Of a stretch of DNA of 10,225 bases, positions 75-10,225 are shown piece after piece; positions within the stretch are counted from its first letter, which is position 1; the number at the start of each line of letters is the position of its first letter. A program made the position numbers and the translations under genes. Source of the stretch: a bacterium (GTDB lineage Bacteria > Zhuqueibacterota > Zhuqueibacteria > Oceanimicrobiales > Oceanimicrobiaceae); assembly GCA_046757165.1 (NCBI GenBank), contig JBHHXT010000178.1, positions 1-10,225 of the forward strand. The letters run 5' to 3'. The notes beneath the pieces were generated by a model. That model ran no database searches, was not told where the DNA came from, and saw only the letters and a list, made by a program, of their open reading frames with translations.

Positions 75-134
75 ATGAAACATCGATTGACTGTAGTGCT
101 GCTTCTTTCCATTCTTGCCATCAACCTGCACGCA
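75..134 (+). other. Sec/SPI signal peptide of the barrel (20 aa), mature N-terminus Gln
   Basis: Basic N-region MKHR, hydrophobic core LTVVLLLSILAI, cleavage site L-H-A followed by Q (CAG 135-137). No lipobox Cys. Confidence 0.8.
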
Positions 135-1532
135 CAGGGCGACAGCGAGCTGCGATATTTCCGGGGGGGGAAATACGAATCAACGGTTTCATTTTCAAAT
201 GCGCTTTTTTATGGGATTGGTTCGCGCGTCGGCGGCATGGGGGGCGACTACGGCGGGCTGGTCCGCGGCAGCGAAAGTCTGCTGTGGAACCCGGCCAACC
301 TGGCCTCTATTCGGCGCTCAGAGCTCACGCTCGATTTCAAACCCCGCGTGCTGCTGGATGCGGCAAGTTTCGTCGATATCGATGCCGAAGTGCGGTCCGC
401 GGTGGATGATGGCATCGAAGATTCCAAGGGGCCAAACTTTACGATGAGCGACGGAGATTATCCGGATGTGGGCGTGCGGTTCGGGGAGAAAGGTTCGTTC
501 GGAACGGGTAGCTTCGCGTTTCGCGGCAGCGGATTTACCGTGGCGGGCGCCCTGCATCAGCCGTTCAGCCTTTCGTTTGATTTGCTGGGCTCGGGTTTTG
601 AAGTGCAGATGGTAACCATCGACGAAGAAGATCCCACCAAAGAAGTTACCTTCTTCAGCAGCGTCGACATGAATGTCCACGCGCGGTTGCGGATTCAGGG
701 CGCCAGCGTCGGCGTCGGCAAAATGCTCACACCAAAGTGGAGCGTCGGGCTGGCGGTGGACCGGCTTTCTGGCGTGGCGGAGACGCGTGCCCGGTTCCAG
801 GTGGAGGGTATCATGGTTGTGGCCGGCAACGAGCGCGCCTTCAACGATCCGAATGATCCGTGGCAGAACAATTTGCACTCGAGCATTTTCGGTAAGTACA
901 AAGGCAACAGCACGGCCCTGCGGCTGGGCACGACCTACCAACTCGGTCGAAATTGGGGAGTTGGCGCGGCCCTGGTCTACTATCAACCATTGAAACTGTC
1001 CGGCAACCTGGACGAACGAAAGTACTCGCTGGAGGGGCTCAACCTCGACGCGGAAGCCGATGAAGACCTCCTGGACATCACCGAAATCGACCTCGATGAG
1101 CCCACCCGCACCGTCATGGAAGAGCCGGCAACCGCGGAGCTCCTGGAGATCAAATTCCCAAACTCCCTGGGTGTTGGAATCAGCGGCAAGGCCGGCTTCC
1201 TGGGACTGGCCCTGAACTACACGCACTACTTGGGAGAATGGTCCTACCGCTTCGATGTGCTGGATGATGGCAAGCTCGAAGTCAACACCAAAGGCCTGAG
1301 CATGGAATACGCCATCCGCCTCGGGTTTGACTTCAACATTCTGCAACTGGGCGCCGGGTTTGCCACCGGAACCATCATCGACGAAGGCGGAGACTCACAC
1401 GGCAAGGCGGCCTTTGTGCCCATGCTGTCGCTGGGCACAGGATTCAGAGTCAACAAATCAATTAGCGCTGACGTGCTTATTCTTGGCATCCCTTCAGGAG
1501 TTGGCAAGGTTACGCTGCACTACAATTTGTAG
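75..1532 (+). CDS. Outer-membrane beta-barrel protein, FadL/Toluene_X superfamily, PorV-like (putative T9SS cargo shuttle/anchor)
   Basis: 485-aa ORF with ATG preceded by GGGAG (66-70). Sec signal peptide MKHRLTVVLLLSILAINLHA|Q. N-terminal 'GSRVGGMGG...SLLWNPANLA' matches the FadL/PorV hatch pattern (GxRxxxMGG...WNPA; WNPA at 285-296). Many amphipathic Gly/aromatic beta-strands (KWSVGLAVD, LRLGTTYQLGRNWGVGAALVY, LSLGTGFRV). C-terminal strand KVTLHYNL has Tyr at -3, like a beta-signal. Barrel/FadL-like call is strong; PorV-specific function is inferred from the neighbouring T9SS-type cargo. Confidence 0.78.
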   Translation: MKHRLTVVLLLSILAINLHAQGDSELRYFRGGKYESTVSFSNALFYGIGSRVGGMGGDYGGLVRGSESLLWNPANLASIRRSELTLDFKPRVLLDAASFVDIDAEVRSAVDDGIEDSKGPNFTMSDGDYPDVGVRFGEKGSFGTGSFAFRGSGFTVAGALHQPFSLSFDLLGSGFEVQMVTIDEEDPTKEVTFFSSVDMNVHARLRIQGASVGVGKMLTPKWSVGLAVDRLSGVAETRARFQVEGIMVVAGNERAFNDPNDPWQNNLHSSIFGKYKGNSTALRLGTTYQLGRNWGVGAALVYYQPLKLSGNLDERKYSLEGLNLDAEADEDLLDITEIDLDEPTRTVMEEPATAELLEIKFPNSLGVGISGKAGFLGLALNYTHYLGEWSYRFDVLDDGKLEVNTKGLSMEYAIRLGFDFNILQLGAGFATGTIIDEGGDSHGKAAFVPMLSLGTGFRVNKSISADVLILGIPSGVGKVTLHYNL

Positions 1533-1588: not shown

Positions 1589-1625
1589 GGTTGTACACCA
1601 CAGCCCAGTCGCGGGGTGTACAACC
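1589..1625. repeat. Perfect 11-bp inverted repeat (hairpin A)
   Basis: GGTTGTACACC (1589-1599) and its reverse complement GGTGTACAACC (1615-1625), with a 15-nt spacer. Confidence 0.9.
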
Positions 1626-1653
1626 CCTACAGGGTTGTTTTCATACACCTTTT
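1615..1653 (+). terminator. Possible weak or conditional intrinsic terminator (hairpin B) downstream of the barrel gene
   Basis: ACAACCC (1620-1626) / CTACA loop / GGGTTGT (1632-1638) followed by TTT. It can extend by pairing GGTGTA (1615-1620) with TACACC (1644-1649) across a bulge, followed by TTTT (1650-1653). The U-tracts are short, so terminator function is uncertain. Confidence 0.35.
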
Positions 1654-1801
1654 CCCTAGACCCGGGGTTTCGCATTCGCTCAACCCTGGGCTGTGCTGTT
1701 GGACGCTTTCAGCGTCACCTGTTTCCGATTGCCCACTTTTTACATTTACCCAATATCCCTCGGTAACTCAATAAAATCTGCCGATCTCTCAAAACAACCC
1801 T
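1631..1801. repeat. Long-range perfect 11-bp inverted repeat bracketing a 171-bp segment
   Basis: AGGGTTGTTTT (1631-1641) and AAAACAACCCT (1791-1801) are exact reverse complements. Confidence 0.85.
1661..1690 (+). repeat. 9-bp stem-loop (hairpin C) with one G-U pair
   Basis: CCCGGGGTT (1661-1669) pairs with AACCCTGGG (1682-1690), with a G1664-U1687 wobble and a 12-nt loop. Confidence 0.7.
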
Positions 1802-1848: not shown

Positions 1849-1920
1849 ATGTCGGTGTTAAGGCATGGATGGAGACTCATCAGTCTTCTGCTCTGCATTG
1901 CCGCGGGCAGCGTGCAGGCC
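1849..1920 (+). other. Sec/SPI signal peptide of the giant protein (24 aa), mature N-terminus Gln
   Basis: MSVLRHGWR-LISLLLCIAAGS-VQA|Q: basic N-region, hydrophobic core, V-X-A cleavage site, then CAG at 1921. Confidence 0.8.
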
Positions 1921-4900
1921 CAGGTCGTAGCGGTCAACAAGGGGCTTCTCAAAAGTCCAGCAAACCTGAGCGCGGATTTGGTGCTCACCGAAGTGCCCCT
2001 CGGTCTCGTCGGCATCCAGGATGTTGCGATAGTCAAATGGACGCCGGCCTCGTCCGGAGCGCTGCGCTACACGGCTGTTCCCGGAGGCGGCAATCCGGCC
2101 AATTATCCGCTGGAGCTGGAGGGCTCGGCGCTGAGCGTCAACACTGGCGGCGAAATTCAGTTTCTTGGCGAGAAGCTGCCGGCCGGAATCCATTACTGCA
2201 TCATTGTCAGCGGCAGCGACAATTCCACGGAATTCGTCGTGGTCCGGGAAGCCGAGGTTTCTCCACGCATGATCAGTCCGCGCAGCGCACGTGGAGAGCC
2301 CGGCATCAACACCAACAGTCCGACTTTCACCTGGGAGGAAGTCAACGGCGTTCCGTTCTACCATGTTTTGCTTTCGGACCAGCCGTTTACGGTCACCGAG
2401 GATGAGGAGGGCAACACGCAAACAGAGGGCGCCAACATCATCTGGCAAGCGATCACGCCGGCAACATCTATCCCGTATGGCACGCCGGACCCGTCCGGAT
2501 TCTTCACCATTACGGACCCGCCGCCCCTGGTCAAGGGCGTTCGCTACAACTGGATCGTCGTCAACAACTACGGCAACAATCCTGCGCTGACCTCGAGCGT
2601 TTCCAGCGGACCGAGCGGATTCGAGGTCGATGTGGCGCCGCCGTTCGAGGCGCCCACGCCAATTCACCCAGCGCACGGATCAACCATCACCGATGATCTG
2701 ATCACCTTTCAATGGAGCGCCGTCGAAGGCGCTTCGCTTTACCACATCTATCTGTCGCGGCTGGAAGAGCTGAGTGGCAGCGAGGCCCTGCTGCCCATCT
2801 GGGACGGCGTCACCTCCAACACGCTCTATGATGTCTCCTCCGGCGTGCTGCAGCAAGAGGGGTTCTACTACTGGAAAGTCCTGGCACAAAACGAAAGCGG
2901 CAACGGCGCCATGACCGACACGACCCGATTTTTCTTCGCAACACGTTCGGCCCGTGTTAACTTTTACACGGTAGATCTACAAGGCGCGACCGTCCCGCGC
3001 TCAACGCTAACCCTGGAATCGGTCAGCCGCGGAACCACACCCACGGTCCTGCCAACTGATTCTGACGGCTGGATCGACCGGCTGCTGCCGCTGGGCTCTT
3101 ATCAGATAACCGCTGCCAAAGAAGGCTTCGAGGACACGACCATCGTTTTTGACCTGCAGATCGAAAACGAGATTCGCAATCTCAGCATCCCCATGCGCCA
3201 GAGTCCGTCGAGCATCTATGGCAGCACGAAAGACGCCAGCCAGAACGCTCTCGGATTCGTGACCATCCGGGCTGTCTCGCAAACCAGCGGAGAAACCAAA
3301 GAGACAACCTCAGACATCAACGGCAATTTTTCACTTGGACTCTCCAGCGACAACTGGCAGTTCAGCGCCGCGAAGAGCGGCTACCAGTCCGCCGCCACGC
3401 GCTCATTGTTTCTCAGCCCCGGAGTCGATCTCAATCTGGATGAGAGCGGCAACGGCGGTCCGTTTGTTCTGACCAGAAATACCTTCACGCTCAGCGGTTC
3501 CGTGGTGACGCCTTCCGGAGAGGCCATCTGGGGGGCGAGCGTTTTGGTGACGCAAAGCAGTGAGCAAGAGCAAGCGGTGTCCAACGCTCAGGGACAATAC
3601 TCGGTGACGCTGGCGACTGGCGACTGGACAGTCACCGTCAGCAAAGATGGCTATGTCAGCCCCCAGCCGCAAACGCTCACCATCATCGACCACAATGTGA
3701 CAGAGAATTTGACCCTGACTGCGCAGGCGAATATTATTTCGGGCACGATTACGAGTGAGGGTGTGGCTCTGGAAAATGCCGAGGTGCGTGCCAGCCCGAA
3801 CTCAGGGCAGACGGTGACCGCCATCACCGACGCGCTGGGACAATACACACTCAGTTTGGGGCGCGGCAGCTACCAGATTGCCCCGCAAAAAACCGGCTAC
3901 ATCTCGCCAGACCCAAGCCAGTTTGCCCTCGATGTCGGTCAGACGCTATCGGGTGTGGATTTTGCCATGCAGCCCGAAAACAGTTTTGTCACCGGAGAAG
4001 TCACAAGCGACGGCGTTACCCCGTTGGCAGGAGTCACCGTAAGCAACGGCTCGGAGAGTGCCAGCACGGGTTCAAACGGGCGCTACACCCTGGGTGTCTT
4101 GCACGGGACATATACGCTTTCAGCTGCCAAACAGGGCTACCTTGCCAGCCAGGAGCAAACCGTGACCCTCACTCCGGGACAAACCCTCGGGGGCATCGAT
4201 TTCCTGCTGACGCCAAACGCCAGCGTCCTGACCGGGAATGTCACGAGCGGCAGCTTGCCGGTGAGCGGGACGCGTGTCACGGCACGCAATTTGAGTACCG
4301 GGGTTCAAAATCAGGTGGAGACAGACCCGCAGGGCGGGTTCTCGTTGAGCGTGACTTCCGGAACGTACAGCTTGATAGCCAGCAAGACGGGCTTCCTGTC
4401 AAATCCGGATTCCATTGTCGTGGCCGTCAACCCGGGTCAGACCATGCCCAACAACGACTTCAGCTTTGTCGAGAATGTGAGTCATGTCTCCGGCCTGGTG
4501 AAGAGTGGCTCGGCGCCCCTGCGCAATGCGACGGTGGTGGTCACCGCGGTTGGCGCATCCGAAAATGTTTTCTCGACTGTCACCGGGGTGGACGGAAGCT
4601 TCAACTTGTCGGTGTTGCCGGATTTTTCATACAGCGTGACCGCCTCCCGGTCCGGGTATTTCGAGCAGAGAGAAACCACAGCCACGCTGGCCGCCGGGCA
4701 GACGGAAAATGTGGTGCTGGCGCTTGCGCCACACCAGAGTATCATTTCCGGAACGGTGACTGCCCAGGGCGGCGGTGTGCTTGCCGGCGTAACCGTGCAG
4801 GCGTCTGACGGTTCAACCGCCTTCTCGGCAATCTCCGGCGCGACGGGCGCCTACACCCTGGGCATCGACGCGGGAACCTTCGAGGTGACCGCACAGAAGT

Positions 4901-7900
4901 CCGGCTATCTGCCCGCAACCCGGTCGTTGACCGTCGGCGTTGGAGACACGACTTCAAACGCGAATTTCTCGCTCGCTGCCAATTTCGCAGCGTTGGATGG
5001 CGTTATCACGGATGCGGCCACGGGAGTGCCGGTTGCGGCTGCTTTGGTAGTCGCTACCGAAACGAGTACACAGAATGGCGGCTCGAATAACACGGGTTCT
5101 CAGGGGCACTATCTGATTCAGAATCTGCCGGCCGGCGTTTACAGCTTGACCGTCACGCATGCATCCTACCTGACGGCCAGAGTGGAGAACCAGGTCTTTG
5201 CCGGCGGGTCCGCGAATCGAATCGATCTGGCGCTCACACCGAAGAACGGCCGAATTGCAGGCCAGGTGACCTCCGGAGGCGCCGGAATTGGCGGGGTCAC
5301 CGTGACCTGCTCAATCGCCGGGGTCACGAATTCAACGGTGACGGCCTCGGATGGCAGCTACGCCCTCAACAATCTCTCGCCCGCCGAGTATACGGTGCAG
5401 GCCAGCCTGTCCGGGCACACCAGCAGCGCCTCCGCTACAACCGAAGTGCAGGCGAACGCTACTGCCACCGCCGACTTTACGGTGACGCCGAACGAGGGCA
5501 CAATCTCCGGATCGGTGCGTGAAAACCAGACCGGCATTGGTGGTGCACAGGTGGTTGCGGCTGGTGATGCCGGCAACTCAGGATTCACCACCACCGCCGC
5601 TGACGGCAGCTACTCGATCTCCAATCTGGCTGCCGACCTCTACCGTGTGCATGTCAACCTTGACCGTTACGCCAGCACGCCCGACACGGCAACCGTGCAA
5701 CTCGATCCCGGGACGACGGTGAGCCAGGATTTCACCGTGGTCAGGAGCGAGGTGCAAGTTTCTGGTAACGTCAGGAACCAGGCAGGGACCGCCATGGCCG
5801 GCATCGTCGTCGTGGGCGAGTCGTCAAAGGGACGTTCTCAAACGACAACCGATGCGAACGGCGCTTTTACGCTGACCAACCTTCCCGGCAATGCGCAGTA
5901 CCAGATCAGGACCGACATTTTTGAGGAGGGATTCGAAAATGGCGAAACCGTGCTCGAGGTGCAGAGCGCCGATCTCTCCGGAGTGACGCTGACCGTAGGC
6001 ATGCGAACGGCCAAGATACGCGGGCAGGTCGGCGTCGGCCAGGCGACGCTCACCGCACACCATCCCGTGCGCGGCCTGACATTCTCCGCAACTTCGCAAC
6101 CGGACGGCAGTTACTTGTTCAAGAATCTGTTTGACGGCGACTATCAGCTCTCCATCTCCAAAGTCGGCTACAAGGCCACGCCTGCTGAAAGATCCGTCGC
6201 CAGTCTCGGTATCGGAGAGGAACGCACCGGCGTCAATTTCGTGCTGGAGGAAATCAAAGTCAATCTTTCAGGGGTTGTTCGGGATGGGAACGGCAATGCT
6301 CTGGCAAATGTCGAGGTGCTGGCGTGGTCCGCGGAGGCGCAAGCAACGGCCACCACCGGCAGCGACGGGCGCTACGCCATAATGGGTTTGCCGCCCAACT
6401 TGACATACATTGTTGAAACAAAACTCTCTGATCTGGATTACGAAAACGCCTCGACCGCCGCCAGCGTGGGAGAAACAGATCTTGCCGGGCAGGATCTCAC
6501 GGTGGCAGTGCATAGCAGCGCGATTCAGGGCACGGCGACCCGGGATAGTGGCGAGCCTGTGGCCAACGCGCTGGTGACGATTGTGGAGCTCGATTCCACC
6601 ACCTACACAGACAGCAACGGAAGCTACGCCTTTTACCACCTGTACAGCGGAACCTACACGCTGACTATCAGCAAGGAGGGGTTCGTCGATATTCCGCCCG
6701 CCACCGTGGTGGTGGCGCAGTCCGGGACCGCGACGCAGGATTTCCGGGGACTTACCCCCTTGACCAGCGCCATCTTCGGTATTGTCAGCGACGATGACGG
6801 GCGATTGCAGGATGTGATTGTCACGGTGACCGACGAGAACACCGGTCAGGTCGCGCGCCTCGACACCACGGACTCCGGCGGAATCTACAGCTTCCAGAAC
6901 CTCGAGGCCGGCGAACTTTACACCGTGGAAACAAACCGAAAAGGCTACGCCACGGAATCCAGTTCCAACCTCAGTCTGGCTGGCGGTTCCGTCACGGCTG
7001 ATTTTCTCTTGAGGCCGGTTGCAAATTCCATATTTGGCCTGGTGCGCAACAAAGAAACGAATGAGATTGTCAGGGACGCAGGGGTTACCGTCAACGGCCT
7101 GGCGGGCGGCGTCTGGAGTGACAGCACCGACGCGTTTGGGATTTTCTCCGTCGCCGGCCTTCTGGCCGGCACCTATTCGGTGGTTGCGGAACGCGACGAC
7201 CTCATCAGTTCATCGCAAACGGTCGAGCTGGCAGCCGGCGGTGCAAGGAAGCTGGCCATGGTGCTGGAGAACCCGGGGTCAATTGAAGGGACGGTGACCT
7301 ACCTCGGCAGTGGCCGGGCCGGAGCAAACATTACGGCCTCGAATCCGCTTTCCGGAGCTGTTGTCACCACAACTAGCGGCGTGGATGGCGGTTACCGTAT
7401 TCGTGGCTTGCTCAATGGTGAATACACGGTATCTTGCGTGGTTCCGGGTTTCTCGGCCGAACCCTCGCCACAAACCGTTATGGTCACCTCCGGGGCTGCT
7501 TCCAGCGCCGATTTCACTTTGACGGCGGAGAACAATGCCATCATCGGCACGGTGACCGACGCGAAATCTGGTCTGGTTTCCGGCGCCAAAATTCTTGTCA
7601 CCGGCACCGCGGTTCGGGACAGCAGCAGCTCTGACCTGAATGGCCAATTTCAGGTCACGGACCTGCCGGACGGCAGTTATCAGGTCGAGGCCAGCCTGCC
7701 GGGCTACACCGCACCCCCAGCAGAGACCGTGCAGCTTGTCGGCGGCCAGCCGGCCATTGTCGATATCCAGCTCACCGCCATTCAAAACAGCATCTCCGGA
7801 TTTGTCAAAAACGATGTCACCAGCGCAGGCGTACCCGGTGCGACGGTTACGGCCACGCTTGCAGGGGGCGCTGCGTTCACCGACACCAGCGCTGCTGACG

Positions 7901-10170
7901 GCAGCTACCTTTTCGAACTCGACACGCCGGGAATTTACCAATTGAGCGCAGCCAAATCCGGCTTCGAAAGCGGCGCGAGTGTCGAGGTCGTGCTGCAGAC
8001 GAACAGCTCGGTGACGCAAAATCTGATTCTGACGCCAATCATTTCCCTGAGCACGATTTCAGGCTCCGTGACGCGGCGCGGAGAGCCCGTGGCCGAGGCG
8101 GAAGTGCGCTGCCTTTCGTTATCTGATGTTGCCATCCGTGACACCGTCTCGTCAAGCGCCACCGGAAGTTTCAGCTTCCCGAACCTGCCGGCGCCGGCAG
8201 AGTATCTGCTCGAAGTGGCCAGGGAGGGACTGCCAACTCTGGTTTCATCCGTGCTCGAGCTGACGGACGCCGGATTGAGCTATGACTTCATCTTTCCAAG
8301 CGGCCAGATTCGCTGGCGCATCACCCGCGATGGCGTGATTCCGCTGCCGGGTGTCACGGTGCGTATCAACAACGACACGCGCGACATTGAATTGATCACC
8401 GACGACGAAGGCACCAGCGCAACCGAGGCCAACCTCACCAGCGGCGACTACTTCGTGACGCTTGCAAACGCCGGAAACAGCCTGCTGCCCGGCAGGCACG
8501 CTGTGACCCTGCCGGAGGACTCGACGACCGCGGTCGAAGAAATATGGTTGCCGTTTATTCACGTGACGCCAGACAGCGTGCCGGCGCAGGAGTCATTGGT
8601 GGTCGAAGTGCTGTCGTTGAGCACGCCGGAGGACACCCTCTGGCTCAACACCCGCGGCGTTGATGAAATGACCTTTTCGAAGATGCTGCTCGAGCCAGAA
8701 CCCGGCTCGACGGGCGGCGACACGCTCGCCTACACCGCAGTTATTCCGCCTCAGCACAAGACCGGGCTAATCAGCTATTTCATTGAGACGGAGTTCAGGG
8801 GCCGCACTTACTCCAACGCTGCCCATCCATTCACGGCCATTGCAACCAATGAAGGTATCTTCTCACGGTTGGACCTGACTCCTGCTCTCAAGAGCGTCCC
8901 TCCCGGCGTCCCGGTCGTGCTCAACGCCCGGGCTTATGACGGCGTCAACAAGTCTATGACTGCGCAAGAGGTTTCCTGGCAGATCTCGGAGGGCGAAGGC
9001 GCATTCGAGAAATTCTCCGATGATTCCACCAAAGCCTGGTTTGTCTGCGACGTCGACACGACGACAAAGATCTCCGTGCTGGTCACCATTGACGACGTCG
9101 TTCTGGCCGGCAGCGCGACCGTCGTGACAGAAAACCGCGTGCTCGCGACACTCGAGGTAAACGGTTCTGCCGTCGAAGCCTCCAACCGGGCAGAGGTCAC
9201 CTTCTCTTATTCCGCCATCGACACCGGCGGCGTGCTCATGTCCATCTATCCGATCTGGACATTTGAACCGGCTGGCAGCGGCCAGCTTGTTGCCGGCGAT
9301 GATTTGGAAAGCGCAGTGTTTCGGCCCGATTCCAGCTTTATCGGCCAGGTGCAGGTCACGTTGCGCGACAGTCTCACCGGGGCGCTGGCTGCTTTTAACG
9401 CCGCCCGGGGCCTCAATTCCGGCGATGTTGGACTGAAGATATTTCAGGTCATCACAGAATCTTCAGACGAGACGCAAGTCAGCGACGGCGAGGGCTTCAC
9501 CCTGACCATTCCGGCAGGTGCGGTTGAAGCCGGCGCCAGCCTGAAGTTCAAACTGAGAAAACCACAGGTGCCGGATGTCAAACGGTTCACCGGCAAGCAC
9601 ACTGTGGCCGGTCAGATTTACGATATTCTGGTTTCGGGCGCAATTCGCGCCGGCAAGCAGTTTGGACTGCGCTTCCCAATACCAGAGGGCCTGGACCGGG
9701 ACAGGCTGGTGGTCGGCTACTGGGACCTCAACTCCCTGAGCTGGAAATTCATTGCGAGCGCTCTCGACGGCGACGTCATTGCCGCATCGACCGCACACTT
9801 TTCAGAATTTGCCGTACTGCTTGCTGCCGAGCCGCTGGCTATCAGCAATGTCGAACTGAAACCCAACCCCTTTTCGCCGCACGACCGGTACGGTCTGCAG
9901 GTCGGCTTCAACCTGACCTCGGATGATATCCGCAAGCCCTGGGTCACGGTTCAGATTTACAACATGCGCGGCGACCTGGTCAGGACTTTGGCGGATAATC
10001 TGCCGATGTCTCCGATAGAATATGTGCCGGGGGATGAAAACACCTTGATGTGGGACGGTCTGACGGACAGCGGAACATTTGCTCAAAACGGGCGCTACAT
10101 CGTGCGCCTCAAAGTACGTGACGGCAGTGGCGAGAAGGAAATTGTCAAGACGGTGGTGCTGATAAAATAG
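1849..10170 (+). CDS. Giant (2773 aa) repetitive cell-surface protein / putative adhesin with 22 carboxypeptidase-regulatory-like repeats, an HFS-motif ZU5/GAIN-like domain and a T9SS-type (FlgD-Ig) C-terminal sorting domain
   Basis: Uninterrupted frame from ATG 1849 to TAG 10168-10170. The start is supported by GGAGGT and by a signal peptide that begins there. The product is Thr/Ser/Gly/Ala/Val-rich and looks all-beta. Domains recognised by motif are listed separately. Adhesin function is inferred from architecture; no catalytic domain was recognised. Confidence 0.9.
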   Translation: MSVLRHGWRLISLLLCIAAGSVQAQVVAVNKGLLKSPANLSADLVLTEVPLGLVGIQDVAIVKWTPASSGALRYTAVPGGGNPANYPLELEGSALSVNTGGEIQFLGEKLPAGIHYCIIVSGSDNSTEFVVVREAEVSPRMISPRSARGEPGINTNSPTFTWEEVNGVPFYHVLLSDQPFTVTEDEEGNTQTEGANIIWQAITPATSIPYGTPDPSGFFTITDPPPLVKGVRYNWIVVNNYGNNPALTSSVSSGPSGFEVDVAPPFEAPTPIHPAHGSTITDDLITFQWSAVEGASLYHIYLSRLEELSGSEALLPIWDGVTSNTLYDVSSGVLQQEGFYYWKVLAQNESGNGAMTDTTRFFFATRSARVNFYTVDLQGATVPRSTLTLESVSRGTTPTVLPTDSDGWIDRLLPLGSYQITAAKEGFEDTTIVFDLQIENEIRNLSIPMRQSPSSIYGSTKDASQNALGFVTIRAVSQTSGETKETTSDINGNFSLGLSSDNWQFSAAKSGYQSAATRSLFLSPGVDLNLDESGNGGPFVLTRNTFTLSGSVVTPSGEAIWGASVLVTQSSEQEQAVSNAQGQYSVTLATGDWTVTVSKDGYVSPQPQTLTIIDHNVTENLTLTAQANIISGTITSEGVALENAEVRASPNSGQTVTAITDALGQYTLSLGRGSYQIAPQKTGYISPDPSQFALDVGQTLSGVDFAMQPENSFVTGEVTSDGVTPLAGVTVSNGSESASTGSNGRYTLGVLHGTYTLSAAKQGYLASQEQTVTLTPGQTLGGIDFLLTPNASVLTGNVTSGSLPVSGTRVTARNLSTGVQNQVETDPQGGFSLSVTSGTYSLIASKTGFLSNPDSIVVAVNPGQTMPNNDFSFVENVSHVSGLVKSGSAPLRNATVVVTAVGASENVFSTVTGVDGSFNLSVLPDFSYSVTASRSGYFEQRETTATLAAGQTENVVLALAPHQSIISGTVTAQGGGVLAGVTVQASDGSTAFSAISGATGAYTLGIDAGTFEVTAQKSGYLPATRSLTVGVGDTTSNANFSLAANFAALDGVITDAATGVPVAAALVVATETSTQNGGSNNTGSQGHYLIQNLPAGVYSLTVTHASYLTARVENQVFAGGSANRIDLALTPKNGRIAGQVTSGGAGIGGVTVTCSIAGVTNSTVTASDGSYALNNLSPAEYTVQASLSGHTSSASATTEVQANATATADFTVTPNEGTISGSVRENQTGIGGAQVVAAGDAGNSGFTTTAADGSYSISNLAADLYRVHVNLDRYASTPDTATVQLDPGTTVSQDFTVVRSEVQVSGNVRNQAGTAMAGIVVVGESSKGRSQTTTDANGAFTLTNLPGNAQYQIRTDIFEEGFENGETVLEVQSADLSGVTLTVGMRTAKIRGQVGVGQATLTAHHPVRGLTFSATSQPDGSYLFKNLFDGDYQLSISKVGYKATPAERSVASLGIGEERTGVNFVLEEIKVNLSGVVRDGNGNALANVEVLAWSAEAQATATTGSDGRYAIMGLPPNLTYIVETKLSDLDYENASTAASVGETDLAGQDLTVAVHSSAIQGTATRDSGEPVANALVTIVELDSTTYTDSNGSYAFYHLYSGTYTLTISKEGFVDIPPATVVVAQSGTATQDFRGLTPLTSAIFGIVSDDDGRLQDVIVTVTDENTGQVARLDTTDSGGIYSFQNLEAGELYTVETNRKGYATESSSNLSLAGGSVTADFLLRPVANSIFGLVRNKETNEIVRDAGVTVNGLAGGVWSDSTDAFGIFSVAGLLAGTYSVVAERDDLISSSQTVELAAGGARKLAMVLENPGSIEGTVTYLGSGRAGANITASNPLSGAVVTTTSGVDGGYRIRGLLNGEYTVSCVVPGFSAEPSPQTVMVTSGAASSADFTLTAENNAIIGTVTDAKSGLVSGAKILVTGTAVRDSSSSDLNGQFQVTDLPDGSYQVEASLPGYTAPPAETVQLVGGQPAIVDIQLTAIQNSISGFVKNDVTSAGVPGATVTATLAGGAAFTDTSAADGSYLFELDTPGIYQLSAAKSGFESGASVEVVLQTNSSVTQNLILTPIISLSTISGSVTRRGEPVAEAEVRCLSLSDVAIRDTVSSSATGSFSFPNLPAPAEYLLEVAREGLPTLVSSVLELTDAGLSYDFIFPSGQIRWRITRDGVIPLPGVTVRINNDTRDIELITDDEGTSATEANLTSGDYFVTLANAGNSLLPGRHAVTLPEDSTTAVEEIWLPFIHVTPDSVPAQESLVVEVLSLSTPEDTLWLNTRGVDEMTFSKMLLEPEPGSTGGDTLAYTAVIPPQHKTGLISYFIETEFRGRTYSNAAHPFTAIATNEGIFSRLDLTPALKSVPPGVPVVLNARAYDGVNKSMTAQEVSWQISEGEGAFEKFSDDSTKAWFVCDVDTTTKISVLVTIDDVVLAGSATVVTENRVLATLEVNGSAVEASNRAEVTFSYSAIDTGGVLMSIYPIWTFEPAGSGQLVAGDDLESAVFRPDSSFIGQVQVTLRDSLTGALAAFNAARGLNSGDVGLKIFQVITESSDETQVSDGEGFTLTIPAGAVEAGASLKFKLRKPQVPDVKRFTGKHTVAGQIYDILVSGAIRAGKQFGLRFPIPEGLDRDRLVVGYWDLNSLSWKFIASALDGDVIAASTAHFSEFAVLLAAEPLAISNVELKPNPFSPHDRYGLQVGFNLTSDDIRKPWVTVQIYNMRGDLVRTLADNLPMSPIEYVPGDENTLMWDGLTDSGTFAQNGRYIVRLKVRDGSGEKEIVKTVVLIK
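2263..2937 (+). other. Two tandem fibronectin type III-like domains
   Basis: Both follow the pattern PxxIxP...TFxW..V.G...YH..LS...Y.W.V: 'PRMISP...SPTFTWEEVNGVPFYHVLLS...YNWIVV' and 'PTPIHP...ITFQWSAVEGASLYHIYLS...YYWKVLAQN'. Confidence 0.7.
2944..8553 (+). repeat. Array of 22 diverged carboxypeptidase-regulatory-like (CarboxypepD_reg / CnaB-like) beta-sandwich repeats, about 85 aa each
   Basis: The consensus 'ISGxV....G.P..GA.V.......T..dG.Y.l..L..G.Y.v.a.k.GY......V.v..G.....dF.L.P' recurs 22 times by manual count over 5610 nt (mean 255 nt). The repeats are visible at protein level and are strongly diverged in DNA. Confidence 0.88.
8554..9400 (+). other. About three further Ig-like domains (one 'IH.P...Y.AVIP...SYFI' type and two Big_2/invasin-like); boundaries approximate
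   Basis: 'FIHVTP...YTAVIPPQ...ISYFIE'; 'RLDLTP...VVLNARAYDG......VSWQI..G.G'; 'TLEVNG...VTFSYSAIDTGG.....PIWTFEP...G.L'. The latter two resemble the intimin/invasin Big_2 pattern. Confidence 0.5.
9475..9819 (+). other. ZU5-like / GAIN-like domain ending in an HFS putative autoproteolysis motif
   Basis: Starts 'GFTLTIPAGAV' (typical ZU5 opening), continues 'GQIYDI...FGLRFPI......LVVGYWD.....W' and ends 'IAASTAHFSEFAVL'. H-F-S codons are at 9796-9804. Confidence 0.7.
9835..10167 (+). other. T9SS-type C-terminal sorting domain (FlgD-Ig-like)
   Basis: 'KPNPFSP...VGFNL......VTVQIYNMRGDLVRTL......LMWDGLTDSG....NGRYIVRLKV.......KTVVLIK-stop' shows the PNPF, IYNxxGxLV, WDG, GxYxVxL and terminal KxxxxK hallmarks. 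Confidence 0.82.
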
Positions 10171-10188
10171 GCGTTTGCTGAGAAAACC

Positions 10189-10225
10189 GTCATTTTGAGC
10201 TTCGCTCGTCATTTGCTGTCATTTG
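10189..10225. repeat. Short direct repeats GTCATTT(T)G x3, truncated at the window edge
   Basis: GTCATTTTG 10189-10197, GTCATTTG 10208-10215, GTCATTTG 10218-10225, with a mini-hairpin GAGC-TTC-GCTC at 10197-10207. Confidence 0.75.

Follow-up and report, generated by a model that had tools for sequence, protein, structure and literature searches.

The locus and its gene products

The window, i.e. the whole stretch of 10,225 nucleotides analysed here, comes from an uncultured bacterium, and encodes a giant type IX secretion system (T9SS) cargo protein preceded by a beta-barrel protein of the outer membrane. Its features are as follows:

75..1532, forward strand: gene for a large PorV/FadL-like outer-membrane beta-barrel (485 aa), a partner gene conserved in the cassette described below
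1849..10170, forward strand: giant T9SS cargo gene, 2773 aa counted from the ATG at 1849
1849..1920, forward strand: residues 1-24, probably a Sec signal peptide, with the mature protein starting at Q25 (sequence inspected by eye)
1921..2970, forward strand: N-terminal head, putative Fn3/Ig-like domains (Atlas feature match, a lead only)
2971..8200, limits approximate, forward strand: stalk built from some 21 repeats of the transthyretin-like CarboxypepD_reg type (PF13620)
8201..9453, forward strand: beta-rich spacer domains (best Pfam E 0.035; no NCBIfam match)
9454..9825, forward strand: predicted GAIN/ZU5-fold (MAIN-type; Microbial Autoproteolysis INducing) domain, residues ~2536-2659 (model, Foldseek, VIA)
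9796..9804, forward strand: H2650-F2651|S2652, predicted autoproteolysis site (alignment to solved chains)
9805..9825, forward strand: last beta-strand of the GAIN/ZU5-fold domain, E2653-A2659 (DSSP of models), which would stay with the C-terminal domain if cut
9829..10167, forward strand: T9SS C-terminal domain (CTD), 113 aa, type A fold, PorU/PorZ-like (VIA, NF033707), with no flexible linker before it
10171..10225, no strand assigned: short genome-wide repeat at the contig break (blastn finds numerous copies, frequently where contigs end)

The stalk matched PF13620 in 21 stretches with an E-value of 1.5e-214, and a Pfam search of the 2773-aa protein returned nothing before residue 375. The head had an Atlas feature match of 0.92 to Ig_Rha78A_N/fn3 clusters, whose recognition falls below the 2300 mark. 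The spacer domains may be Ig-like. Contigs carrying the terminal repeat have a depth of about 800, versus 21.

The HFS triplet sits just ahead of the final strand in a GAIN/ZU5-fold domain

The first-pass annotation had placed an HFS triplet about 10 residues before the C-terminal sorting domain, and the codons, the model and the residue numbering agree with it: His is encoded at 9796-9798, Phe at 9799-9801 and Ser at 9802-9804 (H2650-F2651-S2652), and the part from S2652 to the C-terminus comprises 122 aa (13.6 kDa). No other letters were seen at these codons in the contigs of four public runs, three of which may be where this DNA comes from. AlphaFold models the C-terminal 252 aa with a pLDDT of 94; there, strand I2643-T2648 is followed by the HFS turn, the last strand E2653-A2659, four residues and the first CTD strand A2664-K2671.

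The model of the domain itself (pLDDT 93.8) was matched by Foldseek to the GAIN domain of CD97 (TM 0.70, E 3.8e-4), and its best VIA match had a Z-score of 10.2 (rmsd 2.9, 119 residues aligned). The GAIN domains of CD97 and BAI3 and the ankyrin ZU5 domain are tied (Z 10.2, 10.1 and 10.0, respectively), unrelated rows reach at most 6.4, and sequence identity to GAIN and ZU5/FIIND chains is 10-19%; the earlier label of ZU5-like is thus borne out, with GAIN fitting equally well. Nup98 matched weakly (2q5x, VIA Z 4.6). Furthermore, the alignment of eight solved chains to the model runs precisely to F2651, one of them being the NLRP1 chain 6x6c_E, which ends at 1212; NLRP1 is known to be cleaved at F1212|S1213. 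The structural check that had been suggested had a positive outcome: in the model, HFS occupies the turn that leads into the final strand, at the same register as in GAIN and NLRP1 chains that are cleaved.

It is this place in the fold that goes beyond chance, and the triplet by itself is within chance. His-hydrophobic-Ser/Thr triplets occur three times in the 2773-aa protein, and a looser motif was found in 27 of the 28,531 six-frame open reading frames of the genome, mostly other than such domains. The ZU5 profile PF00791 did not match this protein and matched 12 of 46 relatives weakly (best E 0.0024), and searching solved structures with the sequence of the C-terminal 252 aa gave a single chance match (E 0.86). 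The domain profile matched ankyrin ZU5 among solved structures (E 0.008), and neither GAIN nor NLRP1. In a profile search for longer proteins, crowded by the domain's own family (19 matches among 8000 scored candidates), no link to MAIN proteins of Bacillota was seen; the first Atlas match of the domain, a lead only, is a cluster whose commonest phylum is Bacillota (0.94). A plasmid search with the domain returned no match, and a search for RNA holders found none.

MAIN domains are described in a recent preprint as being cut at HF|S, with the pieces staying associated, and as preceding a surface anchor (bioRxiv 10.64898/2026.05.12.724683). The GAIN_B-like sandwich, the H-X-(S/T) motif at the turn position and the order of signal peptide, ectodomain, domain and anchor are all found in the protein studied here. 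Given the fold, the register and the cut published for MAIN domains, the self-cleavage between Phe and Ser that had been proposed is plausible, and by this analogy we regard it as quite likely to take place in this protein. The semi-tryptic peptide suggested for its detection has to be amended: it ends in a K followed by P, a bond that trypsin normally leaves uncut, and for this reason the peptide is expected to extend to ...KPNPFSPHDR.

Catalytic residues are kept by a minority of the family

A lack of HFS conservation in homologues had been named as a ground for refuting the prediction, and at family level this is largely what is seen. Across the family, H-x-S/T is kept in only 35 of 216 members and the motif is not among the best conserved positions; among the five closest relatives it is kept in four, so that conservation holds within a subclade. 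Relatives at 46-59% identity carry EFS, EFA, SFS or ELA instead, with HFS, EFS and EFA all occurring within one clade of close orthologues, and a paralogue in the same genome has ETG at the site. No Ser, Thr or Cys is present at the site in 151 members (70%), close orthologues included. From these absences, the variant close relatives and the ETG paralogue it follows that the family functions without cleavage.

These observations lend weight to a different reading, in which the domain is a structural adaptor, acting as a stiff spacer or offering a surface for docking (of the large barrel, for example), HFS is a remnant from an ancestor, and any cleavage is inconsequential. The 151 members unable to cleave by this chemistry still have the domain at this position, conservation within it is highest at two Trp rather than at the triad, and the motif has been lost repeatedly among close orthologues. 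Ankyrin ZU5 domains, an equally good structural match, are binding modules that are not known to cleave. The behaviour of the His speaks against such an adaptor. Ser or Thr accompanies it in 35 of the 38 members that bear it, and the nearest neighbour has the same His in 32 of the 35 motif-bearing rows, as compared with 58 of the 181 other rows in which the residue at that column is shared; His is thus held over long branches only alongside Ser/Thr, in a column that otherwise varies freely. The motif-bearing rows do not form one clade, as 13 changes were counted on the tree and, for a selection of 41 from the 216 rows, a one-clade topology had an AU p of 2.7e-56. On independent pairs the coupling of His and Ser was not significant (median p 0.125; 8 pairs, 0 opposite).

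A second, distal His position also tells against the adaptor, since a nucleophile is present in 12 of the 14 rows that have this His. In eight more members a distal His resembling that of NLRP1 precedes the Ser by 28-31 residues, and in seven of them an acid follows nine residues after the His, which is the spacing of H1186/E1195/S1213 in NLRP1. The match to H1186 is one of spacing alone, because a sequence search of a distal-His member against solved structures gave nothing. Taken together, we consider the adaptor rather unlikely. As judged from the alignments, the fold is kept family-wide and the catalytic residues in about one fifth of the members, and cleavage appears to be an optional, lineage-specific property.

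The C-terminal domain is probably retained

The assignment of the C-terminus to the T9SS CTDs stands as regards the fold, which is of type A, and not as regards the profile: TIGR04183 (type A) scored 16.8 bits, below its curated cut-off of 23, and the nearest relative is the CTD of PorU. Among relatives, 21 of 46 match TIGR04183 at E <= 0.1, and the type B profile TIGR04131 matches one of 46, weakly. The C-terminus of NF033707 matched the CTD with E 2.6e-9, and VIA aligned the CTD to that of PorU (6za2) with Z 12.2 (rmsd 2.2, 98 residues aligned, 24% identity), to PorZ with Z 10.1 and to the substrate CTD in 8glk with Z 8.9. Type A traits are seen in the Ig-like sandwich at the extreme C-terminus, the Lys-bearing final strand (a terminal K in 129 of 134) and the T9SS of the genome, where SprA and a full PorU score above cut-off.

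PorU is known to cut within a disordered linker, and shortening of the linker hampered PorU cleavage of RgpB. In the model, the gap between the last strand of the domain and the first of the CTD consists of four ordered residues in a block with pLDDT 94-98, i.e. there is no disordered linker. The linker measure has a median of 3 for the CTD proteins of this genome versus 5 for the family, in groups that overlap (17 of 139 CTD proteins have at least 5). With 113 aa, the CTD is also closer in length to retained CTDs (96 and 108 aa) than to cleaved ones (67-88 aa). What determines whether a CTD is cleaved or retained has been stated to be undetermined, the extra hairpin of PorU and PorZ having been shown not to be decisive. 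A CTD that cannot be cleaved blocks the common PorV, which would account for a need for a dedicated barrel. From the gene linkage described below and the missing linker we think it probable that the CTD is kept on a cognate barrel.

Two other fates of the CTD have to be weighed. It had been suggested that self-cleavage, about 10 residues ahead of the CTD, replaces PorU, strips the CTD and frees the mature protein. The position of the cut agrees with this; the last strand, however, would stay inside the sandwich, the published MAIN products stay associated and co-purify, and most members, which have no motif, would be left without a means of CTD removal. Nor is PorU missing, since it was found in all 105 good-quality genomes of the phylum and in 161 of 167 genomes overall, the six without it being 70-85% complete. 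We regard this suggestion as very improbable. The same presence of PorU, together with the type A fold and the covalent sortase anchors of published MAIN proteins, favours a sortase-type arrangement, in which PorU severs the CTD from the final strand of the domain and joins the short strand to anionic LPS, the barrels being mere shuttles. If true, the protein would be an exact diderm counterpart of the MAIN-LPXTG proteins. This arrangement would have to do without a disordered linker, whose shortening hampers PorU, and would render dedicated barrels superfluous; it appears improbable to us, if less so than the replacement of PorU.

The cargo gene and two barrel genes form a cassette

In a pattern scan of 80 loci, seven of which were dropped as unrelated frames (records labelled Solirubrobacterales), a small barrel gene of the PorV family lay directly downstream of the cargo gene in 69 of the 69 loci with room for it. 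Such a barrel follows only one of the 129 ordinary CTD genes of this genome. NF033709 (PorV/PorQ) matched 46 of 46 small barrels, and the PorP family four of 46, weakly. In 60 of 85 cargo matches a large barrel gene lies no more than 13 kb away, on the contig and strand of the cargo. The large barrel of this locus (485 aa) matched NF033709 at its N-terminus only, below cut-off (E 1.5e-4); its profile matches the N-termini of TodX/TbuX, and hhalign relates it to the small barrel family at 97%. The cargo gene is part of a cassette whose other genes encode two PorV-like barrels and which is spread across the FCB group, with records labelled Balneolaceae, Rhodothermales and Melioribacteraceae among its carriers. 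The small barrel orthologue of this locus was not found in the assembly, which does not amount to absence because the contig ends at the repeat. Our literature searches found no paper joining KSB1, type IX secretion and PorV, and nothing on this cassette in work on T9SS in Ignavibacteria, Calditrichota or Fibrobacter with PorV paralogues.

Proposed mechanism

These cognate barrels, absent from the first-pass annotation, change the mechanism to one in which the CTD would be kept instead of removed. We propose, at about even chances, that the domain is of the MAIN type and that the T9SS uses the protein's own barrel(s) to display the long stalk, cut, whole and held by its CTD, with an optional release point. 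The protein would be exported by Sec and fold in the periplasm. His2650 would activate Ser2652, and an N-O acyl shift and hydrolysis would cut F2651|S2652; because the last strand remains in the beta-sandwich, the pieces of 273 kDa and 13.6 kDa should stay one particle, as shown for other MAIN domains. PorU would leave the CTD on, and the PorV-like barrel encoded downstream would take the CTD from SprA and keep it bound, a step modelled on the PorU-PorV, PorZ-PorQ and type B CTD-PorP pairs. The CTD would probably stay clipped in this dedicated outer-membrane partner, and the long outer part could be shed: the cut would make a non-covalent link just above the anchor, through which the stalk might be lost under load, as is likewise hypothesized for the published MAIN domains. 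The earlier reading of the site as a release point coincides with that published model; that force-triggered shedding matters in vivo is possible, if doubtful. As a point against the proposal, a cut made before export would presumably have to survive energised translocation.

A bolder version would see a hitherto undescribed three-gene surface-display cassette of the FCB superphylum (stalk, small and large PorV-like barrels) with an uncut CTD and a GAIN-fold mechanical fuse, turned on in some lineages and off in others during evolution, using two interchangeable catalytic arrangements in one family, i.e. an adjacent His (GAIN/PIDD type) and a distal His-Glu (NLRP1/CARD8 FIIND type). We consider it rather unlikely in its entirety; if true, it would give diderms an equivalent of the sortase-anchored MAIN proteins and would connect GAIN with FIIND chemistry within bacteria.

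Significance and comparison with known systems

The protein adds T9SS-based outer-membrane display to the settings of GAIN-type junctions of the self-cleaving kind, and hints at a class of T9SS cargo in which the CTD is retained and the barrel is the cargo's own, beyond the models from Bacteroidia and Flavobacteria. Close orthologues that differ in whether they have the catalytic residues form natural pairs for testing the purpose of cleavage, also for MAIN domains at large. This is tempered by the fact that the chemistry, like the model of release, is already in the literature and that most of the family manages without them.

The core idea of a self-cut HF|S domain before an anchor, with release, is indeed already in the preprint. 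Brogan and Rudner reported the HF|S cut with stable association in YfkN of B. subtilis and most other MAIN domains tested, cleavage being seen in 'nearly all', not every, domain; release under shear is a proposal of theirs, and MAIN is regarded as the Gram-positive counterpart of autotransporters (bioRxiv 10.64898/2026.05.12.724683). The terms T9SS, type IX, FlgD, sorting and ZU5 do not occur in its main text; its Tables S1-S4 (350 Pfam domains) may include T9SS-type domains. Our literature searches found nothing on ZU5, T9SS and autoproteolysis together or, from 2025 on, on MAIN domain autoproteolysis and type IX. What we did not find in print is this domain with a PorU/PorZ-like CTD, no PorU linker and a two-barrel cassette.

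With the MAIN proteins and YfkN, the protein shares the GAIN_B-like fold, HF|S before the last strand, and the succession of signal peptide, large repeat ectodomain, domain and anchor. It differs in that the preprint's main text names as anchors sortase motifs and domains of the SLH and wall-binding kinds, whereas here a T9SS CTD and cognate barrels are found in a diderm, and in that the motif is lost from most orthologues. The GAIN domains (CD97, BAI3, CELSR1) and the ZU5/FIIND domains (ankyrin, NLRP1, CARD8, UNC5) are alike in fold (Z 8-10) and scissile position; here, however, there are no GAIN-A helices and no receptor or death-fold module after the cut, and the adjacent His is of the GAIN type, as opposed to the distal His with NLRP1 spacing in eight relatives. 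Finally, PorU-PorV, PorZ-PorQ and the pairs of type B CTD cargo with PorP/SprF (PG1035-PorP, SprB-SprF) likewise have a FadL-family barrel gene directly downstream, and the CTD is nearest to those of PorU and PorZ. In contrast to these retained-CTD pairs, the CTD here is not of type B, the barrels are PorV/PorQ-like rather than PorP-like, and the cassette includes a second, larger barrel and a GAIN-fold domain ahead of the CTD.

Location of the HFS site in the predicted fold

The features of the window on which the analysis bears are the following:

75-1532, + strand: 485-aa gene for a large PorV/FadL-like barrel
1849-10170, + strand: 2773-aa cargo gene
9796-9804, + strand: codons of H2650, F2651 and S2652
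10171-10225: short repeat, present in tens of genomic copies, which are often located at the ends of contigs

The cargo protein has a probable signal peptide (last residue A24, read by eye), an Fn3/Ig-like head (a weak Atlas lead) and about 21 CarboxypepD_reg repeats, and no enzyme domain was recognised in its 2773 residues. Stalk length and head type differ among the 16 family members scanned, in which cohesin, metallophosphoesterase and other heads were also found. The HFS codons show a single letter throughout the contigs from four public metagenome runs, all of hydrothermal vents and from one study; the window DNA may itself stem from three of these runs. As HFS-type triplets are frequent per se, the informative part is the location of this one.

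The last 252 aa were modelled with AlphaFold from 48 sequences (the cargo and 47 picked for shortness from 150 listed matches); the model comprises two domains, with a pLDDT of 94. Modelled alone, the first domain matches the GAIN domain of CD97 (Foldseek TM 0.70; Z 10.2, rmsd 2.9, 119 aligned), with tied scores for the GAIN domain of BAI3 (Z 10.1) and the ZU5 domain of ankyrin (Z 10.0), while unrelated rows begin at Z 6.4. Eight chains in the structure-match list cover model residues 1-116, residue 116 being F2651, and then end; seven of these we take to be N-terminal cleavage fragments or to end at the equivalent place, and the other is human NLRP1, with 1212 as its last residue. The cleavage point of NLRP1 is F1212|S1213 (PMC9700037). 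Because these chains, including NLRP1, stop exactly at F2651, the HF|S of the cargo lies in the correct turn of the model, ahead of the last strand. The structure prediction agrees with the first-pass annotation, which had seen HFS towards the end of a ZU5-like domain and compared it with the GPS motif of GAIN domains.

Conservation of the motif

The family, defined by the last 252 aa, has 1251 representatives at E <= 0.001, the best 150 of which were examined. Sixteen of these were left out because their similarity runs through repeated CTD-like stretches only; they (P0007, P0009, P0010, P0015, P0017 and 11 more) are 1200-2500 aa long and match the CTD-like domain in 4-15 stretches arranged in tandem. 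H-x-S occurs in 24 of the remaining 134. These were pooled with loci of the window's phylum and with loci from a GTDB pattern scan, the latter admitted only with a domain profile match; removal of 34 near-duplicates and 6 short rows from 256 left 216 rows, cargo included. H-x-S/T is found in 35 of the 216, Ser, Thr or Cys without the adjacent His in 30, and no nucleophile in 151. The nearest relatives read HFS (85%), HFS (75%), EFS (59%), HFS and HFS (56%) at the site, the next ones EFA (50%), SFS, SFS and ELA (46%), and a paralogue in the cargo's own genome reads ETG. Since most rows, the EFA and ELA relatives and the ETG paralogue lack the nucleophile, cleavage is not needed by the family; of all the results, this one weighs most against the first reading, which had named a lack of HFS conservation among homologues as a refuting outcome.

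The scarcity of the motif makes a structural role for the domain, with the motif dispensable, the chief rival explanation. On the other side, Ser/Thr is present in 35 of the 38 rows bearing the His, and this His is shared with the nearest neighbour in 32 of 35 motif rows, as against 58 of 181 other rows sharing that column's residue. The motif rows are dispersed, requiring 13 changes on an unrooted FastTree tree with the motif columns removed, and their grouping as one clade was rejected (AU test on 41 rows chosen after viewing the tree). Tested on independent pairs, the coupling of His with Ser was not significant (median p 0.125), with no pair running in the opposite direction. The pattern in these sequences does not look like noise, and we infer an ancestral motif that was repeatedly lost, on an unrooted tree in which gain and loss are indistinguishable. 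We regard the purely structural role as rather unlikely.

A second histidine

At the alignment column of Y2624 (window 9718-9720), right before the first conserved Trp, 14 rows carry a His, and 12 of these have the nucleophile. Eight of the 12 lack the adjacent His (L035, L088, P0029, P0074, P0088, P0098, P0101 and P0142), and in them the distal His precedes the Ser by 28-31 residues. Asp or Glu stands 9 residues past the distal His in 7 of the 8, versus 51 of the 151 rows without nucleophile. Residues H1186, E1195 and S1213 of NLRP1 are spaced by 9 and 27 (PMC9700037), so that the eight members resemble the FIIND triad, the match being by spacing alone. Three close relatives of the cargo have both His and one the distal only, while the cargo itself has the adjacent only; when either His is counted, the independent-pair test gives a median p of 0.06. 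The spacing suggests that there may be two interchangeable catalytic arrangements in the family.

Fate of the sorting domain

The second domain of the model best matches the CTD of PorU (Z 12.2, rmsd 2.2, 98 aligned, 24% identity), and also that of PorZ (Z 10.1). PorU cleaves in a disordered linker ahead of the CTD; PorU and PorZ keep their own CTDs and are seated on PorV and PorQ; and the common PorV becomes blocked by a CTD that cannot be cleaved (PMC5562754). Retained CTDs of 96 and 108 aa are longer than processed ones (67-88), the deciding feature being stated there to be unknown (PMC11285876).

A motif scan of the window's genome (G000) gave 139 CTD proteins, 129 of which have the ordinary form, mostly with a low-complexity linker, and a PorV-family barrel gene follows 1 of these 129. 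Strand runs straight into strand in the cargo and its paralogue, in PorU and in a few others, by a crude linker measure on which the groups overlap. By eye, most PorV-family barrel genes in the genome sit directly behind a large gene with an atypical CTD-like tail; at least 16 such barrels are above cut-off, suggesting many dedicated cargo-barrel pairs from sequence. Barrels were seen on contigs C114, C47, C283, C119, C49, C10, C72, C340, C48, C17, C51, C153 and C70.

SprA and PorU are above cut-off in this genome. Across the phylum, 161 of 167 genomes have PorU (tallies that count two unpublished genomes, G158 and G162), as do all 105 of good quality. Two to four PorU-like matches occur in many of the phylum's genomes; in G000, a second PorU-like C25 protein of ~1960 aa lies below the PorU cut-off (G000:C146:121-6012; L002, L003). 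With the linker missing, PorU-linked anchoring of the cargo to LPS seems improbable. Rather, the cargo CTD is probably retained on a dedicated barrel, to which, judging from gene order and homology, it would bind.

The cassette and its genomic setting

The large-barrel family (~490 aa, with a conserved motif around F-N-D-P) is almost confined to this cassette, and no curated model matched it above cut-off. In the phylum, the cargo is found in 66 genomes (strong matches), the large barrel in 67 and both in 64. Within 13 kb on the same contig and strand, the large barrel accompanies 60 of 85 cargo matches (39 upstream, 21 downstream; one second gene piece excluded, three weak matches retained), and for most of the others it is on a different contig.

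A smaller PorV-family barrel gene lies directly 3' of the cargo gene. Among the matches listed in the GTDB scan, 73 of 80 loci with flanks hold true members, and the small barrel follows the cargo in every one of the 69 that have a downstream flank of at least 800 bases. When 46 copies were aligned, 46 of 46 matched NF033709 and 4 of 46 the PorP model. The labels of records with the cassette, again among the matches listed, include KSB1, Calditrichota, Balneolales, Rhodothermales, Ignavibacteria, Cloacimonadota, Fibrobacterota, Latescibacterota, Eisenbacteria, Krumholzibacteriota and Marinimicrobia. Outside the phylum, 4 of 5 genomes tested have the large barrel, which adjoins the cargo in 3. 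The window contig stops 55 bases past the cargo stop codon, inside the genome-wide repeat, and the small-barrel orthologue of this locus was not found in the assembly.

Several further elements were observed in G000. A complete paralogous cassette (G000:C104:56-7759; L056) encodes a large barrel, a 1665-aa cargo without catalytic residues (ETG) and a small barrel. An intergenic element of ~120 bases (window 1611-1731) recurs on several other contigs, in copies that are 80-87% identical. The domain of the cargo also occurs in two small, stand-alone, lipoprotein-like proteins (G000:C37:18654-19238 and G000:C159:5376-6092; L054, L055), in which it ends seven residues after HFS, the domain of the former matching that of the cargo at hhalign 97%; both genes are flanked, by eye, by a sigma-54-activator-like and a TPR-like gene.

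Proposed mechanism and comparison with known systems

Taken as a whole, the most likely reading is that the protein would be exported, cut itself at F2651|S2652, be held together by the last strand, which stays inserted, and be displayed at the surface by a CTD seated on the cognate barrel. This cut would be the point where the 273-kDa stalk can be shed, leaving the 122-residue piece from S2652 to the C-terminus (13.6 kDa) on the barrel. The first-pass annotation had offered, besides such a force-sensitive release point, removal of the CTD through self-cleavage without PorU; the cut would fall ahead of the CTD in that case as well, with the inserted strand holding the pieces together, and we consider such removal highly improbable.

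Neither the self-cleaving module nor the model of release is new. MAIN domains are GAIN-like domains of bacteria and archaea (10.64898/2026.05.12.724683, preprint, May 2026); according to this source, Edman degradation showed HFS to be cut between F and S, and cleavage occurred in nearly all but not all domains tested and leaves products that remain together. They are placed with a large ectodomain on one side and a surface anchor on the other (sortase motifs, wall-binding domains and SLH domains are named), and shear release is the authors' proposal (10.64898/2026.05.12.724683). The terms T9SS, type IX, FlgD, sorting and ZU5 are absent from the preprint's main text, and its supplementary tables may hold T9SS-type architectures. 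The open-access literature searched yielded no description of such a module coupled to a T9SS CTD with two cognate barrels, of the on-off pattern or of the possible second His.

In type B cargo, the cognate barrel is encoded directly downstream and stays bound (PMC12618676; PMC9143113), and the present cassette likewise has a barrel gene directly downstream. By predicted fold, register and architecture, the cargo domain may be assigned to MAIN; it has the same HF|S and the same order of ectodomain, domain and anchor, the anchor here being a T9SS CTD.
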